A stretch of DNA of 62,865 nucleotides, counting the filler. It is 6 parts of 6 records of this genome, joined end to end, with 100 filler letters (N's around TTAATTAATTAA, not from the genome) between each part and the next. Parts side by side here need not be neighbours in the genome. Positions count along the whole stretch, not along the records: positions 6,087 to 12,067 come from DRR723986_83260; 5 more parts are not named here. One strand, 5' to 3'. Within the stretch, counting starts at the first letter, position 1, and each line of letters begins with the position of its first letter. This document shows positions 1,434-56,055 of this stretch, one piece after another. The notes beneath the pieces are model-generated. The model saw only the letters and a list, made by a program, of their open reading frames with translations. It did no database searches and was not told the origin of the DNA. Both the position numbers and the translations under genes were made by a program.

Positions 1434-3230
1434 ATGACTATGCATAACCCGTTCTTTGACGCCAATCAGATGAGCTTGGCTGAGCTGCGCGAACGTATCG
1501 AAGCGGACCATGAGCTATCCGTGTATAAGCGCCGCGATATCGCTTCCGCCTGCCGCAGCTTGGCGGAGTGGTTCCACTTGCCTGAGACCAGCATCCCAGC
1601 CTCTGCGCCTTACATCCGAGAGAAGATTGAGCGTGTGCATCCAACCTTGATCAATGTGACGCAGCGCCGTGTGCAAAATGTGCGGTCTTTGATCTTAAGC
1701 GCGATGCGGCATCTGAAGATCAACACCAAGCTTGCGCCGACCTCAGCAAAGCTCACGGCTGAGTGGCAGGTGCTATATGATCTTCTGAGTGGCGATACAT
1801 ATCGTAAGTCTGAGCTAAGCCGCTTTATGCGCTACTGCTCAAACCAAGGGATCGCACCTAATTCGATCTCTGACGTTGTATCTGACGGCTATCTTGCTGC
1901 ACTAGAGACCGAGAGCCTGATCAAACACCCCCGCGTGCGGCATCAATCGACCTGCCGTGTCTGGAACCAAATGGCGGATAAGCACCGCAGTGTGGGCTGG
2001 CCACAGGTTACACTTAAGGTGCCCCGCTATGAAGACAGGCTCTACGCCATCGACTGGTCTCTCGTCTCTGATTCTGTGAAGGCGGATATCGATGCCTATC
2101 TAGCTCACCTTGCCAGCAAGGATGTCTTCAGCAAGGGTTTGAAGAAGCCCTTTGCGCCAATCAGCATCAATGCCGTGCGGGGGCAGCTGCATCGTTACAT
2201 CTCTGCGCTTTCTCACAAGGGCGTAGATGTAAGCGGCGCTCAGTCCCTCCGCGATCTAGTCACGCCCGCCATGTTTGAGACTGGCATCAACTGGTTTCTG
2301 GAACGCAATGGAGGCGAGACCTCAAAGCATATCGGCGAGCTTGCCTGGAGCGTGCGCTGTTACGCCGTAAAGCACTGTGATCCATCGGATGAAGATGTGG
2401 CCTTCTTTGCAGAGCATATGCCCAAACTGCGTCTCTCCCATGACGGGCTATCCGCGAAGAATGCTGCCTCTATGCATCAATTTGATGATCCAAAGGCCGT
2501 ACTGCGCTTCCTCACGTTGCCTCAAGTGCTCTGGGACAGAGCCCTTTCCATGTCCAAGACAGTTGAGCAAGGCAGTGTACGCAAGGATGCGCATCTCTTG
2601 ATACAAGCCGCCGTAGCCATCGAGATTCTGCAGTTCGCGCCGATGCGGATCCGCAATCTCAATGCTCTGCGCCTCGATCAGCACCTTATCTGGTATGACA
2701 AATGTCTGCGCATTATCGTGCCTGTAGAAGAGGTGAAGAACAAGGTCGCGCTCGACTTCCTCTTGCCAGAGGCCACAACAGAGCGGGTGAAGCGCTATAT
2801 CGATGACTGGCGCATGATGTTCACCCCTGGCGCGAGCCCCTATCTCTTCCCTGGACGCAAGGGGGCTGCAAAGGACTGCTCTGCCTTACGCAAGCTCATC
2901 ACGAACACGCTCTGGTCCCATGCCGCGATCCGTCTAACCCCGCACCAGTTTCGTCATGCAGCGGCCAAGCTCCTGCTAGACCGCCTGCCCGGCCATTATG
3001 AGGTCGTGCGTAAGCTTCTGGGACATAAGGCGCTCACCACCACCTATGCGCATTATGCGGGCGCTGAGACACAAAAGGCGATCGAGCTTTACGGTGAAGT
3101 GATCACAAAGACCCGGCGGGATGGTGTGGTCCAAGCCTTTAAAGAGCATAAACAAAACCCAAAGCGTCATGAGGATCTGTTCATAGATCCGTTGGCTCTT
3201 ATGGGCAAGCCAAAGCGGAGTGCGTCATGA
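1434..3230 (+). CDS. Tyrosine recombinase/integrase, large (~598 aa) with extended N-terminus
   Basis: Catalytic motifs APMRIRNL (R), VKNK (K), PHQFRH (HxxR), LLGH...TTYAHY (H, Y). GGAG SD at 1422-1425 precedes ATG 1434. Confidence 0.9.
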   Translation: MTMHNPFFDANQMSLAELRERIEADHELSVYKRRDIASACRSLAEWFHLPETSIPASAPYIREKIERVHPTLINVTQRRVQNVRSLILSAMRHLKINTKLAPTSAKLTAEWQVLYDLLSGDTYRKSELSRFMRYCSNQGIAPNSISDVVSDGYLAALETESLIKHPRVRHQSTCRVWNQMADKHRSVGWPQVTLKVPRYEDRLYAIDWSLVSDSVKADIDAYLAHLASKDVFSKGLKKPFAPISINAVRGQLHRYISALSHKGVDVSGAQSLRDLVTPAMFETGINWFLERNGGETSKHIGELAWSVRCYAVKHCDPSDEDVAFFAEHMPKLRLSHDGLSAKNAASMHQFDDPKAVLRFLTLPQVLWDRALSMSKTVEQGSVRKDAHLLIQAAVAIEILQFAPMRIRNLNALRLDQHLIWYDKCLRIIVPVEEVKNKVALDFLLPEATTERVKRYIDDWRMMFTPGASPYLFPGRKGAAKDCSALRKLITNTLWSHAAIRLTPHQFRHAAAKLLLDRLPGHYEVVRKLLGHKALTTTYAHYAGAETQKAIELYGEVITKTRRDGVVQAFKEHKQNPKRHEDLFIDPLALMGKPKRSAS

Positions 3231-4357
3231 GCAAGATCGAACGCACCTCCCTGCCTGTTACAGACTGGCCCGAGCAAGACCAAAGGCTCTGGCAATCCGC
3301 CACTGAACCAGGCCGTTACTTCAAAAAGGCAGGCAAAGCTTCTCATTGGTCTGAGGTCACTAAGCTGCAGGTCCAAAAGAGCTATGCCAAATGGCTCTGG
3401 TATCTGCAGAGCTGCGGCCTGCTTGATCCTGCCGCCTTCCCATCTGAGCGCATCTCAGAGCAATATCTGCGCGGATACCTCGCTGAGCTGGACCATCAGG
3501 GTGTGGCCAGTGTAACCATAACCTCGCGCATCACCGATCTGACGGAAGCCATCCGCGTGATGGAGGCAAAGGCTGATCTGACCTTGTTGCGGGATCTCTG
3601 CTCCCGACTGAACGCGCGCGCTGTACCTTCTCGCAAAAAGGCAGAGCGCCTACGAGCCCCCTCAGAGATCTGGGAGGCCGCTGCTGCAGAGATGTGGTCG
3701 ATCAGGTCAGAAGGCACCCTTACCATCCAATCAGCCTCACGCTTCCGCGATGCGATGTCTGTGGCCTTCCTGATCTGGTCGCCCATCCGGCTTAGCAATC
3801 TGCAATCCCTGACCCTAGGTGAGACAATTACCTTCGCAGGCGCCCTCTGGCGCTGCAGCTTTGCTGCACATCAGATGAAGGACAAGACGCCCTTGGACTT
3901 CTATCTTCCACAGGACGAAGAGTATCGCTCGCTCATGCAGCTCTATCTCCGCCGATACAGGCAGAAGCTTCTCCGGCAGCCGGAGTTGCCCATTGGCGCC
4001 CCTCTGCCCTTAAGCGGTCCGCTCTGGATATCCACCCGTGCAGAGGCCATGTCAGGCCAATCCCTTTATTACGGCTGCAAGCGCTGCACCAAGGCCACCC
4101 TTGGCACGGCCATAAACCCGCATCTCTTCCGAGACTGCGCCGCCAGCGCCCTCACAGCCGACAAACCAGAATATGTGCTCGCCGCAGCGCGCATTCTCAA
4201 TCACAACCAGCTCTCGACCACCCTCACCCATTATGAGCATGCCTCCATGATCCAGGCCGCCTCCCGTCTCCATGACGTCATCGGCCAAATCATCGATGAA
4301 GCCGGTGAAGGAGACGATGTGTTCAAGGCTCTCTTCGACAAATGGGGGGATGAGTGA
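3227..4357 (+). CDS. Second tyrosine recombinase (376 aa)
   Basis: SPIRLSNL (R), MKDK (K), PHLFRD (HxxR), ILNH...TTLTHY (H, Y). ATGA overlap with the upstream integrase at 3227-3230. Confidence 0.88.
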   Translation: MSKIERTSLPVTDWPEQDQRLWQSATEPGRYFKKAGKASHWSEVTKLQVQKSYAKWLWYLQSCGLLDPAAFPSERISEQYLRGYLAELDHQGVASVTITSRITDLTEAIRVMEAKADLTLLRDLCSRLNARAVPSRKKAERLRAPSEIWEAAAAEMWSIRSEGTLTIQSASRFRDAMSVAFLIWSPIRLSNLQSLTLGETITFAGALWRCSFAAHQMKDKTPLDFYLPQDEEYRSLMQLYLRRYRQKLLRQPELPIGAPLPLSGPLWISTRAEAMSGQSLYYGCKRCTKATLGTAINPHLFRDCAASALTADKPEYVLAAARILNHNQLSTTLTHYEHASMIQAASRLHDVIGQIIDEAGEGDDVFKALFDKWGDE

Positions 4358-5986
4358 TGCGCGTTGCTGTCTATGCCCGTTTCTCCACTGATATGCAGCG
4401 CGATAAGTCCATCGAAGATCAGGAGCGTGTTTGTTTGCGACTGATCGCGAGCAGGGGATGGTCACATGTCAAAACATTCGCCGATCGCGGACTCTCAGGC
4501 GCCTCCAATACGCGTCCCGGATATCAAGAGCTACTTGGATTTGTCAGAGAAGGCGGCTGTGATGTCGTGGTGGCCGAAAGTATCGATCGTCTTAGTCGAG
4601 ACCAAGAACACATCGCTGGCTTTTATAAAGCGATGGCATTCCAAGGCGTGGTGATTTGCACTGTAGCTGAGGGGGTCATCAACGAACTGCACATTGGCCT
4701 GAAGGGCACAATGTCAGCCTTGTATCTTAAAGACCTCGCACAGAAAACAAAGCGCGGCCTGGAGGGGCGCATTGCAAAAGGCAAAAGTGGCGGTGGTAAT
4801 GCCTATGGTTATTCAGTCGTTCCGGGCGATGAGCGCGGCGACCGAATAATCGATGGAAGCGAAGCACGAATAGTTCGCCGGATTTTCGAAGAGTTCGCCA
4901 ACGGTAAATCACCCAAGCAAATTGCAAGGGACTTAAACCGAGATGGCATAACTGCGCCGAGAACACGTCTGTGGCGTGACAGTGCAATACGGGGCCATGT
5001 TCAGCGTGGAACGGGTATTCTCAACAACGAACTCTACATCGGTCGATTGGTTTGGAACCGCCAGAGGTACATCAAGGACCCAGAGACTGGGAAGCGCGTC
5101 TCACGCCGCAACGCCGAACACGAGATCCAGATCACCGCCGTCCCGCACTTGCGAATTGTAGACGACGAGCTCTGGAGGCGCGTAAAGCAACGCCAGAAGG
5201 AGATTTGGCCCAATCAGAAGCGCTCGCCACAAAAGCAACCAGACTTTTGGCAAACTCGACGTCCCCTCCACATCCTGTCCAATAAGACACACTGCAGTCG
5301 CTGCGGGGGGAGGATGGTGTCCGTGGGGCGCGATTATCTTGCATGTAGCAATGCACGGAAGCTACAGACGTGCAGCCAAAGCAAAGGCATCCGCCGCCCA
5401 GATCTGACGACTAAAGTGGTCGAGCTCCTTAATCATGGATTAATGCGCTCCGAGGCGGTGAGGGCATTCATCAACGCCTATCAACGGGAGTTCAACGAAT
5501 TACAAAAACATCGTTTCGCTGCCACCAATGCGCTCAGGGACAATATTGCCGCAGCGAATAAGAAATTGGATGGGCTGTACGATGCAGTGGCTGATGGAAT
5601 ACGCAGCGAAGGCATAGTGGCGCGGATTAGCGAGCTTGAAGCACGCGTGAAGGAACTCAGAGCCGCCCAAGAACAGCAAGTAGAGCCATCGCCTGTTCTA
5701 ATGCATCCAAACCTTGCAGAGGCGTATCAACGGAAACTCGGTCAACTCACCAGCATGCTGAATGACCCCGCATTCGCGTCAGAAGCCATTCCTTTAATAC
5801 GCGAGTTGATCGACCGAGTTGACCTGCGCCACACTGCTGAGGGATGGGAAGTCGAACTTTACGGCCAGTTGGCAGCATTGTTCAATGTCGCTTTATCAGA
5901 AAGAAAAAAAGCCCACCCTTCGACGGATGAGCCTGGTTTCATTAGTTCGACAAAAGTGGTTGCGGGGGTAGGATTTGAACCTACGA
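4357..5986 (+). CDS. Large serine recombinase (resolvase + recombinase + zinc-ribbon + coiled coil); no stop before contig end
   Basis: MRVAVYARFS catalytic Ser motif, DRLSR, YIGRLVWNR, CSRCGG...YLAC...C zinc ribbon. TGATG overlap with the upstream gene at 4355-4359. Confidence 0.93.
5904..5932 (-). terminator. Rho-independent terminator for the tRNA-fMet, embedded in the recombinase CDS
   Basis: Minus strand reads GCTCATCC-GTCGAA-GGGTGGGC-TTTTTTT: an 8-bp stem with G:U pairs plus U7, 24 nt downstream of the tRNA CCA. Confidence 0.75.
5957..5986 (-). tRNA. 3' part of tRNA-fMet (truncated by contig end); likely att site
   Basis: Reverse complement TCGTAGGTTCAAATCCTACCCCCGCAACCA is a T-arm, acceptor 3' strand and CCA typical of proteobacterial initiator tRNA. 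The anticodon is not visible. Confidence 0.8.
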
Positions 5987-6086
5987 NNNNNNNNNNNNNN
6001 NNNNNNNNNNNNNNNNNNNNNNNNNNNNNNTTAATTAATTAANNNNNNNNNNNNNNNNNNNNNNNNNNNNNNNNNNNNNNNNNNNN
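5987..6086. other. Artificial contig spacer (N-run + TTAATTAATTAA + N-run); also at 12068-12167, 26044-26143, 32549-32648 and 55956-56055
   Basis: The same 100-nt linker, with stops in all six frames, occurs five times. Confidence 0.99.
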
Positions 6087-7333
6087 TTGCCAACAGCACT
6101 TTCAACATGAAGCGTGCTGTCATGCCGTAGTAAGATATGCTTAACAATGGCGAGGCCTAGGCCCGTACCACCCATTTTTCGTGAGCGCGCATTGTCAACA
6201 CGATAAAATCTTTCCGTAAGACGGGCTAAGTGGTCTTCGGCTATTCCCGGTCCTTCATCGCGCACAGATATCTTTACTTTTCCGTCAACTTTGCCTGCAA
6301 CTACATCAAGAAAAACCGTAGTATTTCTGTCGGCGTATTTAGCCGCATTCACAGTAAGATTGATTAATACCTGCATCAATTGGTCGGGGTCAGCAATGGC
6401 ATAGTCCAGTCCAGGTTCTATTTTTGTTACAAAGGACATCCCACGTTCTTTACCAACAGCGGAGGCCGTCAGCACAACGCTACTGATCATCGTAGATAAA
6501 TTTACGTTGTTGTTGGGGGCTTCATGGCGAGACATTTCAATTCGAGAAAGAGAAAGCAAGTCATCTATAAGCCGAACCATCCGTTCAGTCTCTGTTTGCA
6601 TTATGCCTAAGAAGCGCTCCCTGGCAGGGGGGTCATTTTTAGCAGGGCCCTGTAATGTTTCGATGAAACCGATCACAGAGGATAGGGGTGTACGCAGTTC
6701 ATGGCTTGCGTTGGCAACAAAATCCACACGCATTTGCTCTGTTTGCAGCAAGCTGGTAACTTCATAGAAAAAGGCCATTGCCTGGGTGGGTACTTTTTTT
6801 GAACCTGTCCCAGATACGCGGGAGATAGTAACGTCAAAACTGCGTTTTTGTGCGTTTTCATAGCGAATCACGCCAGCGTATTTTTCTCCATCGATGAATA
6901 TTTTTTGTATCGCTTCCACGATTTTGGATTGCCGTAGATATTTATGGACATCATTTCCAGCAATCTCATCACCAATCAGTTCTTTCGCGGCATTATTTGC
7001 AAAAGATATTCTGTGGTCTTCACCAATGATTAGAATTGGCAGAGGAACGGCATGTAGCGTGTTGGCACGCACCGATTTTATGCCGCCACTTCTCCGTGTT
7101 GTGATGATAGATTTCGCTGTATCATTATCTTCATTAGGCAAGCCTGCCGTTTTGTCTAGTGTGTCAATGCCGAGTATCAATATGCTAATCACTGCAAATG
7201 TTACAACCGCGGCGACTATTGTCATCATTCCGATTAGCCAAAAAGAAATGAGAATGATGAAAAGTATAGCGATTATCATTGGCCTGGTTAATAGGCTTTG
7301 CACAGTATATTTGGAAGGGTCAGATAAGGGCAT
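6087..7333 (-). CDS. phoR: Phosphate regulon sensor histidine kinase PhoR-like (C-terminus truncated)
   Basis: N-terminal TM helices, PAS region, DFVANASHELRTPL H-box, NAAKY N-box, DEGPGI, ERFYRVD..RSR..GGTGLGLAIVKH. Confidence 0.88.
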
Positions 7334-7482
7334 TCTATGTACTCGCAAGTAGCGCTGAATGAAGTAAACAATGGGTTATAGCAGTAATACCTAGCAATAT
7401 TACTTCTTGATGACACTTTTTTGTCGCTTGAGATTAAAATTTTATTAGGTAAATCATAACAATATAGCGTATTGTGACTTCG

Positions 7483-7499
7483 TTGGTTGGGGTTTTGCT
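7483..7499 (+). promoter_or_regulatory. Possible sigma-54 (-24/-12) promoter upstream of the RRE-kinase cassette
   Basis: TTGG-TTGGGGTTTT-GCT gives exact GG-N10-GC spacing (GG 7485-7486, GC 7497-7498) with a TTGCT -12 box. The CAC after GG is not conserved. Confidence 0.35.
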
Positions 7500-7551
7500 C
7501 GCGAAAGCGCGGTCGAAATAAATATTATGACATTTTTACAATGGATATGTT

Positions 7552-8322
7552 GTGACTGAAAAACCAATATTACCTGATACATCGGGAAGTGACACCGACG
7601 CTGAGGAAAGTGACTCAACGCGGCGGATAAAGGAACGCCGACATTTGTTAATGCTCGGTGCTGCCGGGCTTCCTATGATGTTGACGCTGAAGGCGTCTGC
7701 CCGTGAAGTGTTGATATCCCAATTAAAATGTACAGTGAAGCTGCCTCGCAGAATGCGAATTTTGGTGGACTGTGATGGCGCTGCGTGGGTTGGTACGCGC
7801 AACATAGAATACAAAAATGGTAAAGGTTTCAAAGTATCTGACATTGCGAAATTCAAGGACAAGGCGTCTTATGTGTTTCCTGCGGGTACTGTGCCTAACA
7901 ACTGGCGCCCAGATGTTTGCCCGATCGAGCAGTGTGGCGATGACGACGACGATGATGATGATTTTGATTATGATTATGCCAGCGCGTCTTCAGAGTTAGA
8001 TGAGCTGATGCGGGCTTCTATGTCAGACCAAGCAGACGGTATTATGCTAGCTGCAGCACGCAAAGGCGATGATGACGACGATGATGATGATTGTGATCCA
8101 GATTGGGTAGATTCTGGCTATGCATTTTACAATATCGACAAAAATACTATTATTACGCCTGCAGACCATGTCAGTGGTAATAGTTTTAGTGTGCAGAATA
8201 ACAACAATGGTTTGTATATCATTCTATCGTTAGCGTATGAGAGCAGTTATGGAAATGCTGCAGGTTGGCCCGGAATTTCATGCATATTCTCTATTTTAAC
8301 CTATTTGCAAACGCAAAGTTGA
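7552..8322 (+). CDS. Tat-signal-like, Cys- and poly-Asp-containing protein; candidate substrate of the downstream RRE/kinase/NTase
   Basis: ERRHLLMLGAAGLPMMLTLKASA (twin Arg, h-region, AxA), six Cys, two G-D8 tracts, C-terminal GWPGISCIFSI. First gene of the operon. Confidence 0.75.
   Translation: MTEKPILPDTSGSDTDAEESDSTRRIKERRHLLMLGAAGLPMMLTLKASAREVLISQLKCTVKLPRRMRILVDCDGAAWVGTRNIEYKNGKGFKVSDIAKFKDKASYVFPAGTVPNNWRPDVCPIEQCGDDDDDDDDFDYDYASASSELDELMRASMSDQADGIMLAAARKGDDDDDDDDCDPDWVDSGYAFYNIDKNTIITPADHVSGNSFSVQNNNNGLYIILSLAYESSYGNAAGWPGISCIFSILTYLQTQS
7936..8097 (+). repeat. Duplicated 33-nt Gly-Asp8-x-Asp coding unit (7936-7968 and 8065-8097)
   Basis: GGCGATGACGACGACGATGATGATGATTTTGAT versus GGCGATGATGACGACGATGATGATGATTGTGAT: 31/33 identical, 129 nt apart. 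Confidence 0.85.
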
Positions 8323-8354
8323 TTTAAAGAACCTGCTATTGGCATACGTCTGAT

Positions 8355-8663
8355 ATGGCCTCAAAATTAAACACAAATGATGTGCGCTGGCTGTCTGACT
8401 CAAGCCAGTATTTAGCCGTGGAATATGATGATACGCATCTGGTGTATTTTAAACCATCAGGCGACACACACTTTTTAAATTTTCTTTCCTATGGAATGGT
8501 TGATGTAGTATCGACCGGGCCTTTGTCCGAGCAGGAAATATTTCAAGCCGTCCTGTCGCGTTTTTCGCTAACAGCTCAGGAACTGCCTGCAAATTTGATA
8601 ACAATTACGCTAGATGAATTGGATCAGGCCGGGTTAGTTGCGAAAGTGAGCCCGGTGGAATGA
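8355..8663 (+). CDS. PqqD-family peptide chaperone / RiPP recognition element (HPr-rel-A system type)
   Basis: 102 aa. EYDDTHLVYFKPSGDTHFLN beta-strands, then helices ending LDELDQAGLV. Directly upstream of an HprK-related kinase with ATGA overlap. Confidence 0.85.
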   Translation: MASKLNTNDVRWLSDSSQYLAVEYDDTHLVYFKPSGDTHFLNFLSYGMVDVVSTGPLSEQEIFQAVLSRFSLTAQELPANLITITLDELDQAGLVAKVSPVE

Positions 8664-9592
8664 CTGAAATAGCCACCCTTGCATCTTATAAAAAATCAGA
8701 CATTCGTTCAGCTCTTCGGCGTGGCACGTTGACGCTGCATCTTGGCCCTTTTGCGCATTTAATTTCTGGCGCAAGCGATGCTTTGCTTGATTTTTTGATG
8801 GACACATACCGGGATTGCCGCTTCGAAATGAATCCATCTGACGTTACGGATGTTCAATTGAGCATAGAAGCCCCTAATATACTGCGTAGATACATACGTC
8901 CGCAGATTATTCCCAATCCAGGATTTGAAGTGCCTGCGCTTCCACTCCCCAAAAGCATGGCTGCGCTGGCCCATGAAATGGGTTTAAACCTCTCGGTGGC
9001 CCTTAAATGCTGCAGGTTTGTTAATATTCATGCAGGTGTTGTTGCGGACGGCGAAGGCGCTATTGTAATGAGCGGGGCATCTGGGGCAGGTAAAAGCACA
9101 CTAACGGCCGCTATGCTCCAATATGGTTATCGTCTTTTGTCTGATGAATTTGCATTGCTTGGTATGGACAAGCCAATGCTGCACCCATACCCGCGCCCAA
9201 TTTCTTTGAAACAACAAACAATCCCTGTCGTCCGTGAAATGGTAGGAGATAGTTGGATAAGCAAAGTTGTTGAGGATACGCCCAAGGGCAACATCGCATA
9301 TTACCGCGCAAAACAATCTGATTTGAAACGTGATCAAGAATCGGCCAAAGCTAAATTAGTTATTTTTCCCAAATTTGAAGAGGGTGTTCGGCCTCACGCG
9401 CACCAATTAAACCCGGCTGAGGCTATTATGCGGCTTGTTCCCGCTTCCACGAATTATTCGTTGTTAGGTGAGCCAGCCTTTCGTGCGATGACCGGTATGC
9501 TTGAGAATACGCGTTCTTATGAAATTTCTTATGGCTCGACAACAGATAGCCTTCGTTTAATGGGGGAAATTACGGGTCAAAAATTTCTATGA
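8660..9592 (+). CDS. HprK-related kinase A
   Basis: IHAGVV, Walker A GASGAGKST, LLSDEF, PYPRPISLK. Lacks the N-terminal DRTGG-type domain of true HprK. Confidence 0.88.
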   Translation: MTEIATLASYKKSDIRSALRRGTLTLHLGPFAHLISGASDALLDFLMDTYRDCRFEMNPSDVTDVQLSIEAPNILRRYIRPQIIPNPGFEVPALPLPKSMAALAHEMGLNLSVALKCCRFVNIHAGVVADGEGAIVMSGASGAGKSTLTAAMLQYGYRLLSDEFALLGMDKPMLHPYPRPISLKQQTIPVVREMVGDSWISKVVEDTPKGNIAYYRAKQSDLKRDQESAKAKLVIFPKFEEGVRPHAHQLNPAEAIMRLVPASTNYSLLGEPAFRAMTGMLENTRSYEISYGSTTDSLRLMGEITGQKFL

Positions 9593-10638
9593 TGAACCGC
9601 TCTAGCCTTAAACATATTACCGGACTTGTCCCGTTACCAAAAAAGGTCATGGATCGCATTGCGCTGCTTGTTTATGCCGATGCAAACCATATTGTCGGCC
9701 AAATGGCTTCATTGGTACCAACTTCAGACGGCGGGCGTCTTGATAAAATTTTTACAAATGCTCTATTAAGGGCCGGTAGTGATCATAGAATGCTGCAGTT
9801 TGAGATGAACCGGCTGGAGTATGCACTAAGCGATAGTGATATAGAACCAATAATTCTAAAGGGCGGCGCTTATGTTGCGCGCAGCAAAAAAGCAGGCGAA
9901 GGCAGACGTGTAAGCGATCTAGATATTTTGGTGCCTGAGTCAGACTTGGCAGAGGTGGAAGACAAGCTTTCGGATGCAGGGTGGGAACCACATGAGGAAA
10001 CTGACAATCCTTATGACCAGTCATATTACCGCGAACATATGCATGAGTTGCCACCGTTACGGCATAGGAAGCGCGGCACCATACTAGATGTTCATCATCG
10101 CTTATTGCCTAAAACTGCAAGATACAGTGTTGATGTTGAGTTGATGCAAAGTGTGGCAAAACCCTTAAAGGGAACGCGCCTAAAAACATTTAATGATGTT
10201 GACCTATTTATCCACTCAGCCGTGCATGCTTTTGGGGATGGTTCTTTTGACACACCGGCCAGAAGCTTGGTTGAACTGCATTTATTGTATGATGAACTAA
10301 CGCCGGACGACAAAACAAAGCTTCCGATAAGGGCAACGGAAGTAGGCGCTAAAGTTCCTGTGTCTATAGCTTTGTGGGCAATTGGATGGTTTTTTGCCGT
10401 TGATACCGCGCGGAAGCACGCCAGCCGCTTAATGGGGCTAAGGCGTCACCACCTTTTGCGTTGGGCGATAAAATCTAAAACACTAGTTGGGCCTTTGTCG
10501 GCCATGGCGAAGTCTTTCTTATACATACGCAGCCATTATTTGCGTATGCCAATGCACCTATTGATACCGCATCTGTCTAGAAAAGCGATTGCATGGCGGC
10601 CATTTTCAAGGCCACCGGTCGATTTGCCATTTCCATAA
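9589..10638 (+). CDS. Nucleotidyltransferase family protein (NTP_transf_5-like)
   Basis: PIILKGGAY, GRRVSDLDILV (DxD), HMHELPPLRH, LDVHHRL. ATGA overlap with the kinase. Confidence 0.87.
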   Translation: MMNRSSLKHITGLVPLPKKVMDRIALLVYADANHIVGQMASLVPTSDGGRLDKIFTNALLRAGSDHRMLQFEMNRLEYALSDSDIEPIILKGGAYVARSKKAGEGRRVSDLDILVPESDLAEVEDKLSDAGWEPHEETDNPYDQSYYREHMHELPPLRHRKRGTILDVHHRLLPKTARYSVDVELMQSVAKPLKGTRLKTFNDVDLFIHSAVHAFGDGSFDTPARSLVELHLLYDELTPDDKTKLPIRATEVGAKVPVSIALWAIGWFFAVDTARKHASRLMGLRRHHLLRWAIKSKTLVGPLSAMAKSFLYIRSHYLRMPMHLLIPHLSRKAIAWRPFSRPPVDLPFP

Positions 10639-10781
10639 ATTCGTTGCAATTGCGCCACTTTTTGATGTGTTTCTGCTTGCGTCTTCGGCTGCGCATGGTT
10701 TAAGAGCAAATGAAATTGCGTAGATTGCTGTGGTATTGAAACTTCTTGAAAGCACTACCCACAGAGTAAAAGGTAAGTTTG

Positions 10782-12067
10782 ATGAGTGAATGGCGTCCAG
10801 ATAGCTGGAGAAATATGCCAATTGTGCAGGTTCCGTCCTACCCGGACGCAGCCGAGTTGAAAGCTGTTGAGCAAGAGCTTTCAGGCTATCCGCCACTTGT
10901 GTTTGCTGGCGAAGCAAGAAACTTGAAAGCGCAATTGGCTGACGTGGCTAATGGCAATGGTTTTTTGCTGCAGGGCGGTGATTGCGCTGAAAGTTTTGCT
11001 GAGTTTCATCCAAATAATATTCGCGATACGTTTCGGGTTTTGCTGCAAATGGCTGTGGTTCTTACGTTTGCGGCCAGTTGTCCTGTTGTTAAAGTGGGGC
11101 GACTAGCAGGGCAGTTTGCTAAACCACGATCCAGCGATACAGAAAGTAAGGACGGCGTTGAGCTGCCAAGTTACCGCGGTGATATTATTAACGGCATCGA
11201 CTTTTCTGAAGAATCGCGTGTTCCGGACCCGAAACGGATGCTACGGGCATTTAGTCAATCTGCCGCTACTCTTAACTTGCTGCGTGCCTTTGCGCAGGGC
11301 GGTTATGCAAATCTGATGTCTGTTCATAAGTGGAACTTGGACTTTGTAACCCAAAGCGGTGCAGGGGAGCGATACGGTGAGCTGGCGGATCGTATCGGAG
11401 AAGCGCTTTCTTTCATGCAGGCGTGCGGTATTAACCCAGCAGAAGTTAGGCAGCTTCAGGGCACTGATTTTTACACATCTCATGAAGCGTTGTTGCTTGG
11501 TTATGAACAAGCGCTAACCCGCGTGGATAGTACGTCTGGTGACTGGTATGACACTTCAGCGCATATGTTGTGGGTTGGGGATAGGACACGTCAAACCGAC
11601 GGTGCTCACCTTGAGTTCTTGCGCGGTGTGGCAAACCCCCTTGCCAGCAAGGTGGGGCCAACAACGGACCCTGATGACCTCATTCGTCTTATTGATATCC
11701 TTAACCCTGGCAATGAGCCTGGCCGCCTTACGCTGATTACAAGGTTTGGGGCAAATCAGGTTGAAGAGTTTCTTCCTGGAATTTTGCGTAAAGTTAAAAG
11801 CGAAGGCCGTAATGTTGTCTGGTCATGCGACCCAATGCATGGCAACACGCTTTCTGCAGCGGGTGGGCTTAAAACCAGACCTTTTGAGCGAATTTTACAG
11901 GAAGTTAAGCAAGTATTTGCTTGCCACAAGTCTGAAGGAACATACGCTGGTGGAATTCATCTGGAATTAACTGGGCAGAACGTTACTGAATGTACGGGCG
12001 GCGCAATGGCGATTACGGAAGATGGGCTTTCCTCGCGGTATCATACCCACTGCGACCCGCGTTTGAA
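10782..12067 (+). CDS. Class II 3-deoxy-D-arabino-heptulosonate 7-phosphate (DAHP) synthase (3' truncated)
   Basis: [49 protein letters not shown]. Confidence 0.96.
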
Positions 12068-12167
12068 NNNNNNNNNNNNNNNNNNNNNNNNNNNNNNNNN
12101 NNNNNNNNNNNTTAATTAATTAANNNNNNNNNNNNNNNNNNNNNNNNNNNNNNNNNNNNNNNNNNNN

Positions 12168-12188
12168 CAGCTCCGCGAAGCTGGAGCG
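12168..12188 (+). repeat. 21-nt hairpin CAGCTCCGCGAAGCTGGAGCG, identical at the start (12168-12188) and end (26023-26043) of contig 3
   Basis: Direct comparison of the two contig ends. Stem GCTCC-GC-GAA-GC-T-GGAGC. Confidence 0.95.
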
Positions 12189-12266
12189 AACGAAGCCCAT
12201 CTAACATAGAAGAAATGCTTAGCTTTGTCGAGCAAAACAATTCTAAACGTACTCAAGGCCCGAATA

Positions 12267-13037
12267 ATGAACCTTATAGACACCCATACGCACTTATTCT
12301 CTGATCAATTTGATGAAGACAGACACTCAGTTATTCAAGCCGCTATAAATGCTGGAGTTTCAAAAATGTTATTGCCCAATATAGACCTTGATTCTATAGA
12401 CGCCATGCATCAATTAGAAAAAGATTTTCCTGATAACTGCTTGGCAATGATGGGGCTTCATCCTTGTTCGGTTACTGAAAATTGGGAATCTGAGTTAGCT
12501 GTAATTAAAGAGCACTTATTCAACAGAAAATATATTGCCGTTGGGGAAATTGGAATGGACTTGTATTGGGACAAATCTACTTTAGGCTACCAACAAAAAG
12601 CGTTTGCGCTACAAATTGAATGGGCTAAAGAACTCAAGATTCCGATAGTTATTCACGTTCGAGATGCCTTTGATGAAGCTTTTGAAATAGTTGATCAACT
12701 GAATGATGATCGCTTGACGGGAGTTTTTCATTGCTTTACTGGGACGCAAGATCAGGCACAACATATCCTCAACTATGGCGGATTTAAATTGGGTCTTGGT
12801 GGGGTTTTGACCTTTAAAAACGCAGGATTAGATCAAGTGATAAAAGATATTGAATTAGAACATTTGATTTTAGAAACAGATTCCCCTTACCTGGCTCCAC
12901 ATCCTAATAGAGGAAAAAGAAACGAAACTTCGTACATCACTTATGTGGCATCTAAACTTGCAGAGGTGAAAGAAATTTCTATTGAAGAAGTGGCAGCTGC
13001 TACCACCAAGAATGCCAAGGAGTTGTTTGGGCTGTAA
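12267..13037 (+). CDS. tatD: TatD family deoxyribonuclease/hydrolase
   Basis: IDTHTH, MGLHP, AVGEIGMD, IVIHVR, GVFHCF, LETDSPYL. Confidence 0.95.
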   Translation: MNLIDTHTHLFSDQFDEDRHSVIQAAINAGVSKMLLPNIDLDSIDAMHQLEKDFPDNCLAMMGLHPCSVTENWESELAVIKEHLFNRKYIAVGEIGMDLYWDKSTLGYQQKAFALQIEWAKELKIPIVIHVRDAFDEAFEIVDQLNDDRLTGVFHCFTGTQDQAQHILNYGGFKLGLGGVLTFKNAGLDQVIKDIELEHLILETDSPYLAPHPNRGKRNETSYITYVASKLAEVKEISIEEVAAATTKNAKELFGL

Positions 13038-26043: not shown

Positions 26044-26299
26044 NNNNNNNNNNNNNNNNNNNNNNNNNNNNNNNNNNNNNNNNNNNNTTAATTAATTAAN
26101 NNNNNNNNNNNNNNNNNNNNNNNNNNNNNNNNNNNNNNNNNNNATTTGAAAATAGGGTAAAATAGCTAGCTATCTATATTTTGTGTTAGAAGTTGGTAAT
26201 TCTAACAAACCATTTTCTAGAACTATAGAAATGCTTTGATTGCCTAGAAAAGCAAAAACCCCAACTCTCAATATTTCAGATAGTTAGGGTTTTGTGGTG

Positions 26300-32548: not shown

Positions 32549-32650
32549 NNNNNNNNNNNNNNNNNNNNNNNNNNNNNNNNNNNNNNNNNNNNTTAATTAA
32601 TTAANNNNNNNNNNNNNNNNNNNNNNNNNNNNNNNNNNNNNNNNNNNNCT

Positions 32651-55955: not shown

Positions 55956-56055
55956 NNNNNNNNNNNNNNNNNNNNNNNNNNNNNNNNNNNNNNNNNNNNT
56001 TAATTAATTAANNNNNNNNNNNNNNNNNNNNNNNNNNNNNNNNNNNNNNNNNNNN

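Follow-up and report, generated by a model that had tools for sequence, protein, structure and literature searches.

The window, meaning the whole stretch of DNA that we analyzed (62,865 nucleotides, filler included), consists of six separate pieces. Our subject is a four-gene cassette confined to one 6-kb piece (positions 6087 to 12067). The first gene, orfA, encodes a protein of 256 amino acids (aa); the other three, here called the trio, encode a discrete RiPP (ribosomally synthesized and posttranslationally modified peptide) recognition element (RRE), a kinase related to HPr kinase (HprK), and a nucleotidyltransferase (NTase). The piece also holds a histidine kinase gene and a gene for 3-deoxy-D-arabino-heptulosonate 7-phosphate (DAHP) synthase. 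An earlier reading of this DNA from its letters alone (the sequence-only reading) had described four co-oriented genes, the last three joined by ATGA overlaps. Both the coordinates and the overlaps were confirmed: the four genes lie on the + strand at 7552 to 10638, with overlaps at 8660 to 8663 and 9589 to 9592 (Table 1).

TABLE 1 Features of the cassette and its flanks. Positions are those of the window; A1 is an alignment of 18 orfA sequences.
Feature	Position	Strand	Evidence or remark
orfA, 256-aa precursor/substrate candidate (leader, folded Cys-containing core, and variable acidic insert)	7552..8322	+	ORF, GTG start
Conserved leader core, residues 29 to 50	7636..7701	+	Invariant residues in A1
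Leader subsite, twin Arg	7636..7641	+	
Leader subsite, h-region P41-M-M-L-T-L46	7672..7689	+	
Leader subsite, A48-S-A50 small-x-small	7693..7701	+	
Junction motif S56-Q-L-K-C60 (candidate phospho-acceptor Ser and first conserved Cys)	7717..7731	+	S56, Q57, and C60 invariant in A1
Variable acidic insert, two poly-Asp runs	7936..8100	+	26 Asp/Glu in 61 residues; pLDDT <50
C-terminal motif W239-P-G-I-S-C-I-F-S247 ([ST]CxxS)	8266..8292	+	P240, G241, S243, C244, and S247 invariant in A1
Discrete RRE, PqqD-family peptide chaperone of HPr-rel-A system, 102 aa	8355..8663	+	TIGR04353, 48.4 bits (cutoff, 35)
HprK-related kinase A, 310 aa	8660..9592	+	TIGR04352, 234.9 bits (cutoff, 200)
PF14907 nucleotidyltransferase, 349 aa	9589..10638	+	126.8 bits (cutoff, 31.2)
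Sensor histidine kinase, divergent from cassette, cut by N spacer	6089..7348	-	HisKA + HATPase_c
Class II DAHP synthase, cut by N spacer	10779..12065	+	PF01474, 679.6 bits

The sequence-only reading had assigned the PqqD/kinase pair to HPr-rel-A and the NTase to PF14907, and searches with hidden Markov models (HMMs) bore this out, with all three proteins scoring above the curated cutoffs. The adjacent kinase and PqqD-family protein exceed the cutoffs of both TIGR04352 and TIGR04353; the cassette is the HPr-rel-A system. In NCBIfam that system has models for the kinase and the chaperone only, and the substrate family is an addition made here. We take the PF14907 NTase to be its third gene; a homologue lies 3' of the kinase in all 18 alphaproteobacterial loci described below. 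We found no publication that names the HPr-rel-A system or its TIGR04352 and TIGR04353 families, and literature searches for PqqD or RRE with HPr kinase or twin-arginine returned lasso-peptide work only. In the accessible part of the literature, PF14907 (NTP_transf_5) appears in a phosphonate context.

The AlphaFold2 (AF2) model of the small PqqD-like protein has three strands and three helices, with a predicted local distance difference test score (pLDDT) of 86.1. Its top Foldseek matches were the complexes of the lasso-peptide B1 protein TbiB1 with its leader (5v1u and 5v1v; E, 1.6e-3; prob, 1.00; TMt, 0.71), followed by TigE, MibB, TruD, TbtB, FusB1, PqqD, MccB, and NisB. These fold matches had TM values of 0.6 to 0.7 at a prob of 1.00, and none reached an E of ≤0.001; by sequence, the RRE profile matched TbiB1 among the solved structures at an E of 0.42. 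By its model, the small PqqD-like protein is predicted to have the RRE fold. The kinase has a Walker A motif (G139-ASGAGKS-T147) followed by G156-Y-R-L-L-S-D162-E163, and it aligns with the HPr kinase/phosphorylase 1ko7 over the P-loop and the GHRLVADD stretch, with a whole-sequence E of just 0.36. In the NTase we found the motif G92-G93 ... S109-D110-L-D112 (counted from the translation) and no solved relative by sequence. Judged by these motifs, the kinase and the NTase look intact. A PqqD-alignment search of proteins of 211 to 2,000 aa, which is weak evidence on this point, gave no fused RRE-precursor forms.

orfA is a real gene, because it has 47 homologues (E ≤ 0.001), invariant leader and C-terminal motifs, and a predicted core that folds with confidence. 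Neither orfA nor any of its homologues could be given a family: orfA matched nothing in Pfam or NCBIfam, no homologue has a Pfam domain or belongs to a named family, and the only two named homologues are a "hypothetical protein" of Kordiimonas aquimaris and one of Temperatibacter marinus. The twin-arginine segment and six cysteines that the sequence-only reading had seen are present, as R29-R30, a hydrophobic stretch, A48-S49-A50, and Cys at positions 60, 74, 123, 128, 181, and 244. Ser, Thr, and Tyr make up 17 of the last 61 residues, compared with 17.5% across the whole protein. In the AF2 model, residues ~60 to 125 and 185 to 256 form a core with pLDDT values of 85 to 94, and the leader and the acidic insert are disordered. 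The insert differs in length among orfA homologues and is missing from paralogues of ~195 aa (A1); it contains a helical segment between two eight-Asp runs. Fold searches with the model found nothing convincing (best Foldseek E, 1.7; best VIA-align wide Z, 2.3, mostly on the disordered insert). In a protein atlas, orfA fell only among Pseudomonadota "hypothetical protein" clusters at 0.93 to 0.94. A weak row at 0.84, below the level of a lead, had PF02975 in 11% of the cluster members; PF02975 is the methylamine dehydrogenase light chain, likewise small, Cys-rich, and exported.

orfA has a conserved leader. In A1 the residues R29, R30, L33, G36, A38, G39, P41, M42, L44, T45, A48, and A50 are invariant, and the same pattern recurs in 15 divergent precursors (alignment A2) and in 71 leader-bearing open reading frames (leader ORFs). 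In these 71 and the window's own, an acidic or charged N terminus is followed by RR(R)x[LIF][LIV]K and then by a Gly/Ala-rich segment of 12 to 15 residues. This segment contains P-x-h-h-[TS]-[LM] (h, hydrophobic) and is followed often by a basic residue and then by a small-x-small site. Among the strict-pattern leader ORFs, a Cys lies within 25 aa after T-L in 64 of 66, and Ser or Thr occurs in the six residues before that Cys in 63 of the 64; 60 of 72 leader ORFs have [ST]CxxS in their C-terminal 30 aa. These tallies (of 66 and 72) include many close relatives. The arginine signal, C60, and C244, the motifs singled out by the sequence-only reading, are all invariant in A1.

We compared the surroundings of the trio in other genomes. 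A scan with orfA of one genome per species gave 28 loci, all in Kordiimonas, Kordiimonadaceae, Kordiimonadales, or metagenome-assembled genomes labeled alphaproteobacterial or "Sphingomonadales." Sixteen have the full order orfA-PqqD-kinase-NTase, two are cut by contig ends, and 10 are lone short paralogues elsewhere in the genome. Members of this Kordiimonadales-type clade also have the flanking histidine kinase and DAHP synthase genes in common, so the adjacency of orfA and the trio could be inherited gene order, and the decisive comparison is therefore with loci outside the clade.

In a class-level sample of 401 alphaproteobacterial genomes, TIGR04352 scored above its cutoff in 21. We compared 18 of these loci; the three left out are from a genome flagged as unpublished, from the start of a contig, and from K. 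aquimaris. Their flanks vary: a phosphate-type kinase with ABC transport genes, MeaB with methylmalonyl-coenzyme A mutase, polyprenyl synthase with a methyltransferase, or exopolysaccharide genes. Across these differing flanks, a leader ORF adjoins the trio in 17 of the 18 loci; 14 are directly upstream of PqqD, two are directly downstream of the NTase, and one is cut by a contig end. The leader ORFs encode 75 to 260 aa with unrelated cores, some of which extend only 15 to 35 residues past the predicted cleavage site. Those of 122 to 130 aa in three loci (L071, L074, and L078) share the window's L.C....P start and G.PG.SC..S end, so the shorter proteins with such ends that the sequence-only reading had mentioned, as possibly from sphingomonads, do exist.

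We then took 30 trio loci with 1.5-kb flanks from a phylum-wide sample. A leader ORF lies within 1.5 kb of the trio in 26 of them, 25 of these being upstream and codirectional and one divergent. Locus L081 is a 27th, with a more divergent twin-arginine signal ORF that is visible by eye only, and in the remaining three loci the leader ORF is 2.6 kb upstream or on a different contig of the same genome. This sample added core families of 150 to 180 aa ending in ...SCW(T/S/N)SF and of ~200 aa ending in ...YL..TW. None of 22 leader-bearing ORFs scored above an NCBIfam cutoff, and none of 10 leader ORFs, or of those included in the gene scans of the 18 loci, matched Pfam.

Association at the level of whole genomes was measured with a 43-position leader profile, made from the window and 14 alphaproteobacterial rows (A2) and run on both samples. 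In the phylum sample, the kinase scored above its cutoff in 62 of 401 genomes (~15% of the Pseudomonadota sampled). At E ≤ 1e-4 the leader profile matched in 47 of the 62 trio-bearing versus 2 of the 339 trio-negative genomes (odds ratio, 528; Fisher P, 1.9e-45, which overstates independence because the genomes are related to one another, although the contrast is still very large). For 39 of the matches, the kinase gene is no more than 4 kb away. This sample is close to independent of the profile because just one of its genomes had supplied a profile row. In the class sample, the profile matched at E ≤ 1e-6 in 17 genomes, of which 16 have the trio, with the match inside the trio locus; in the 17th no kinase was detected, and the match is at a contig start. 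As 14 of these 17 genomes were themselves sources of profile rows, the class-sample result is in large part circular. Overall, the leader type is almost confined to trio-bearing genomes.

From these comparisons of gene neighborhoods we conclude, and this is new here, that the upstream 256-aa ORF belongs with the trio; orfA is very probably the trio's substrate. The sequence-only reading had proposed the upstream twin-arginine protein as the substrate and its leader as the part read by the RRE, and the conservation of the ORF beside homologous operons in both sets of loci, together with the genome-level contrast, backs that proposal. Gene order, family membership, the fold of the RRE, the intact motifs of the two enzymes, and the genomic association of leader ORF and trio are direct observations. 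Besides the relatedness and circularity given above, what weighs against the conclusion is that 15 of the 62 trio-bearing genomes have no leader match at E ≤ 1e-4, that three or four of the 30 phylum-sample loci have no leader ORF nearby, and that L075 alone among the 18 class-sample loci has none near its trio.

Those genomes without a match would be expected if the trio modified some other target, such as a small molecule, an exopolysaccharide, or a different peptide, with the leader proteins being just coregulated secreted partners. The embedding of the trio in exopolysaccharide gene sets in five of the 18 loci points the same way, as does the location in capsule loci of the similar clusters described below (PMC13381572). 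We consider this explanation very unlikely: a PqqD-type RRE, which the fold matches indicate here, is a peptide-binding domain, and the leader ORFs are nearly exclusive to trio genomes and adjacent to the trio across unrelated flanks.

Several features of the loci vary. The position of the leader ORF is not fixed, being downstream of the NTase at L062:794-1021 (-) and L069:6342-6614 (-) and divergent at L099:737-1240 (-). The exopolysaccharide sets that surround the trio (L062, L064, L069, L070, and L075) include genes for Poly_export/SLBB, Wzz, Wzy_C, GT4 glycosyltransferases, Asn_synthase with GATase, Acetyltransf_6, polysaccharide deacetylase, and sugar transferase; such loci presumably resemble PEP-CTERM/exosortase loci. 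At L024, tandem copies of orfA (6869-7717 and 7840-8493) precede a single PqqD-kinase-NTase set. In nine genomes (L015-L019, L021-L023, L025, and L026) a second, shorter orfA paralogue with the same leader lies away from the cassette. The short paralogues mostly follow a gene with a YCII domain and one for an extracytoplasmic-function (ECF)-type sigma factor (Sigma70_r2 + DUF6596), which gave no functional clue. The paralogues suggest that a single enzyme set could serve two substrates, the cassette orfA and a distant paralogue.

Among the leader proteins, the core ranges in length from 15 to >200 aa while the leader is conserved. A conserved leader with variable cores is the pattern of RiPP precursors. 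Bacillota provide the nearest published parallel, namely, the linear polyphosphorylated peptide (LPP) clusters (Popov et al., Nat Commun 2026; PMC13381572). According to that article, LPP clusters consist of an RRE, an HprK-like kinase, and an NTP transferase (LppB, LppK, and LppN). Their precursors are 35 to 200 aa long with conserved N termini and variable C termini, and the kinase adds up to four phosphates to Ser3 of the core. The RRE presents the leader to a signal-peptidase-I-like enzyme, which cuts it, and the NTase had no detectable activity in a heterologous host. The clusters occur in capsule loci, their function is given as unknown, and they are called restricted to Bacillota (PMC13381572).

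The window's cassette shares with LPP clusters a stand-alone RRE, a kinase resembling HprK, and an NTP transferase without a macrolactam cyclase. In both systems, too, the precursors have protein-like lengths (35 to 200 aa in LPP and 75 to 260 aa here), conserved N termini, and variable C termini; both are often in polysaccharide loci, and both leaders end in a site of the signal-peptidase-I type. This likeness of the trio to LppB, LppK, and LppN is one of protein families. The differences are that the host here belongs to the Pseudomonadota rather than the Bacillota; that the leader here reads RRxLLK..PxhhTL..AxA and has neither Tyr nor Trp at the third position before the Pro, whereas the LPP leader is YxxPxVLxHQxIxFETxxS; and that the cassette lacks both the SipW-like archaeal-type signal peptidase I (LppS) and an MsbA-like exporter. 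There is no MsbA-like pump in the window's piece, and among the 18 loci ABC, MacB, and HlyD genes are next to the trio only in L068. No peptidase family was found beside the trio in those loci, save for unrelated trypsin-like matches several kilobases away.

A second precedent comes from lasso peptides. A review (PMC8498205) reports that PadeK-type HPr-kinase homologues phosphorylate a precursor Ser in paeninodin and that in pseudomycoidin (PsmK and PsmN) the NTase adds hexoses to the phosphate made by the kinase. B1-type RREs bind lasso leaders, and the model of the window's RRE is closest in fold to a lasso B1 protein. Here, by contrast, the substrate is a predicted folded protein rather than a peptide of ~20 aa, and the window's piece has neither a macrolactam cyclase nor a B2 peptidase. 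The absence of cyclase and protease claimed by the sequence-only reading is thus true of the 6-kb piece, and PF13471 (lasso B2) is absent from all three related cassette-bearing genomes searched. Because that piece spans only 6 kb, and because lasso clusters of the paeninodin and pseudomycoidin types contain the same tailoring set (PMC8498205), one could suppose a split lasso-peptide pathway with its cyclase and B2 peptidase elsewhere in the genome. We give this hardly any credence: besides the lack of PF13471 in the related genomes, no cyclase or B2 lies within ~5 kb in the 18 loci, and the substrates are proteins of 75 to 260 aa with signal-type leaders. The lone Asn_synthase match, in L064, belongs to an exopolysaccharide set and also contains a glutamine-amidotransferase domain.

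The cassette thus works like LPP and phospho-lasso systems but is a member of neither, because it lacks a cyclase and B2, has neither a peptidase nor a pump of its own, and carries a different leader motif. It is a proteobacterial, Tat (twin-arginine translocation)-like-leader, protease-less, pump-less relative of LPP and phospho-lasso tailoring.

If orfA is the substrate, the RRE and kinase could read its C-terminal [ST]CxxS, as lasso-type kinases act on the C-terminal end, with the leader serving for export only. The presence of this motif in most leader ORFs, at the frequency given above, is what recommends the idea. We consider it distinctly unlikely, since the shortest precursors (L065 and L066; 75 and 82 aa) have neither Cys nor the motif yet retain the leader and the Ser just after it, a second core family (with endings like ...YLKATWT) also lacks the motif, and the modified Ser of LPP is at core position 3 (PMC13381572). 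The C-terminal residue of orfA is Ser but is not conserved in A1, and hence the lasso-type "C-terminal Ser" rule does not carry over, a point that counts against the scheme set out below.

Is the leader a Tat signal? By inspection it is a canonical one, with a twin-arginine motif, a moderate h-region, and an AxA site, and TatC was found in all three related genomes that carry the cassette. This reading rests on inspection because a search with the Pfam TAT_signal HMM misses the window's leader, even with the threshold relaxed to E ≤ 10. The same HMM scored just one of eight leaders tried (L067; 18.1 bits, under the 22.7 cutoff), and no NCBIfam Tat model matched the window's leader. These results, which count against Tat export, would be expected if the leader were a cytoplasmic RiPP-type leader that is merely Tat-like, with orfA not exported by Tat or else handled by an unlinked protease and exporter. 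The retention of P-x-h-h-T-L across unrelated cores, which is more than ordinary signal peptides need, also favors that explanation, as does L068, where HlyD-type, MacB/FtsX-type, and ABC ATPase genes directly follow the NTase (9777-12711), perhaps as the dedicated exporter that a minority of systems would have. Yet all the Tat features that we inspected are present (RRx-hydrophobic-hydrophobic-K, a mildly hydrophobic stretch of 12 to 15 residues, a basic residue, and small-x-small), no protease or exporter is conserved beside the trio in the 18 loci, and the cores contain Cys and are predicted to fold, as expected for exported proteins. On this evidence we regard a purely cytoplasmic leader as unlikely.

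The conserved h-region also bears on what the RRE would bind. Export alone does not require that this region be kept across unrelated cores, and its P-x-hydrophobic resembles the second half of the [Y/W]xxPx[LVI] motif bound by lasso and LPP RREs; for these two reasons we argue that the RRE may read the h-region of the leader. The aromatic residue of [Y/W]xxP is missing, however, leaving only P-x-hydrophobic, which speaks against such binding. 

The best explanation of the data is that the orfA cassette is a proteobacterial, protein-sized version of RRE-guided peptide phosphorylation. We lean toward an overall scheme in which Ser phosphorylation guided by the RRE is followed by decoration by the NTase and then by export of orfA; within it, we infer the binding of leader by RRE, the site and chemistry of the modification, and the Tat export route. 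The RRE would bind the leader stretch RRxLL..G..P-x-h-h-T-L, which is also the n- and h-region of a Tat-type signal, and would present orfA to the HprK-related kinase, which would phosphorylate a conserved Ser once or several times. S56, just past the predicted AxA site, is the likeliest target, with S243 or S247 in SCxxS as the alternative. S56 is proposed by analogy, because of the Ser3 precedent in LPP and because a junction-proximal Ser is kept even by the shortest, Cys-free precursors. The PF14907 NTase would then attach a nucleotide- or sugar-derived group to the phosphate; the lack of detectable activity of the LPP NTase in a heterologous host tells against our scheme. Finally, after release, the modified and folded orfA would pass through the housekeeping Tat system and be cleaved by signal peptidase I. 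Such a route would explain the absence from the cassette of a protease and an exporter of its own.

A further step, which we put forward tentatively and at somewhat less than even odds, is that the RRE binds a true Tat signal on orfA and acts as an export checkpoint. The RRE on the h-region would then keep the protein cytoplasmic until the kinase and NTase finish, and housekeeping Tat and signal peptidase I would take over the jobs that other RiPP pathways give to a dedicated exporter and leader peptidase. TorD and DmsD are Tat proofreading chaperones that bind twin-arginine signal peptides. The likeness to them would be one of functional analogy only, in that a small cytoplasmic protein would hold a Tat signal until the passenger has matured; the folds are unrelated (the RRE is a winged helix), and maturation here would be phosphorylation or nucleotidyl transfer, whereas there it is cofactor insertion.

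The divergent histidine kinase gene is kept beside the cassette in Kordiimonadales-type genomes and in L071, L074, L077, and L078. In these four loci it adjoins phosphate-ABC-type genes (PBP_like_2, BPD_transp_1, DUF3333, and DUF3708), which is why we infer a "PhoR-like" label for the flanking kinase; it is possible, from gene context, that the cassette flank is tied to phosphate regulation. Inspection by eye gave no convincing Pho box near the cassette, and a scan of 7250 to 10900 for promoters and terminators gave counts not above those of shuffled sequence. A look-up of sequencing runs covering 7300 to 10700 listed none, RNA included.

The pieces of the window are separated by junctions at 5987-6086, 12068-12167, 26044-26143, 32549-32648, and 55956-56055, each of 44 N, 12 bases, and 44 N (ten 44-N runs in five pairs). 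The G+C content of the cassette piece is 0.42 to 0.50, that of the piece to its left is ~0.55, and that of the piece to its right is ~0.36. Genome G001, which shares 33% of words with the window, has no match to the cassette DNA. The pieces perhaps come from more than one source organism. On the neighboring piece lie a phage-integrase-family gene (3227-4357) and, overlapping it at its start, a large serine recombinase gene (4354 onward, cut by the spacer) with Resolvase, Recombinase, and Zn ribbon domains; the region from 3227 to 5985 looks like the end of a mobile element.

The HPr-rel-A kinase/chaperone pair has sat in annotation libraries without a known substrate. Its tie to a defined family of leader proteins makes the system directly testable, because the four genes can be coexpressed and analyzed by mass spectrometry. 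If our interpretation is correct, phosphorylation of the LPP type would no longer be confined to Bacillota and to peptides but would reach Pseudomonadota and folded secreted proteins as well. Should the leader serve at once as Tat signal and as ligand of the RRE, this would be a new coupling of posttranslational modification to export, and an entire class of secreted proteins and peptides with phospho-decoration and cores of 15 to >200 aa would pass a maturation checkpoint. A role in biofilms or at the cell surface is hinted at by how often the trio and LPP clusters lie in exopolysaccharide loci.

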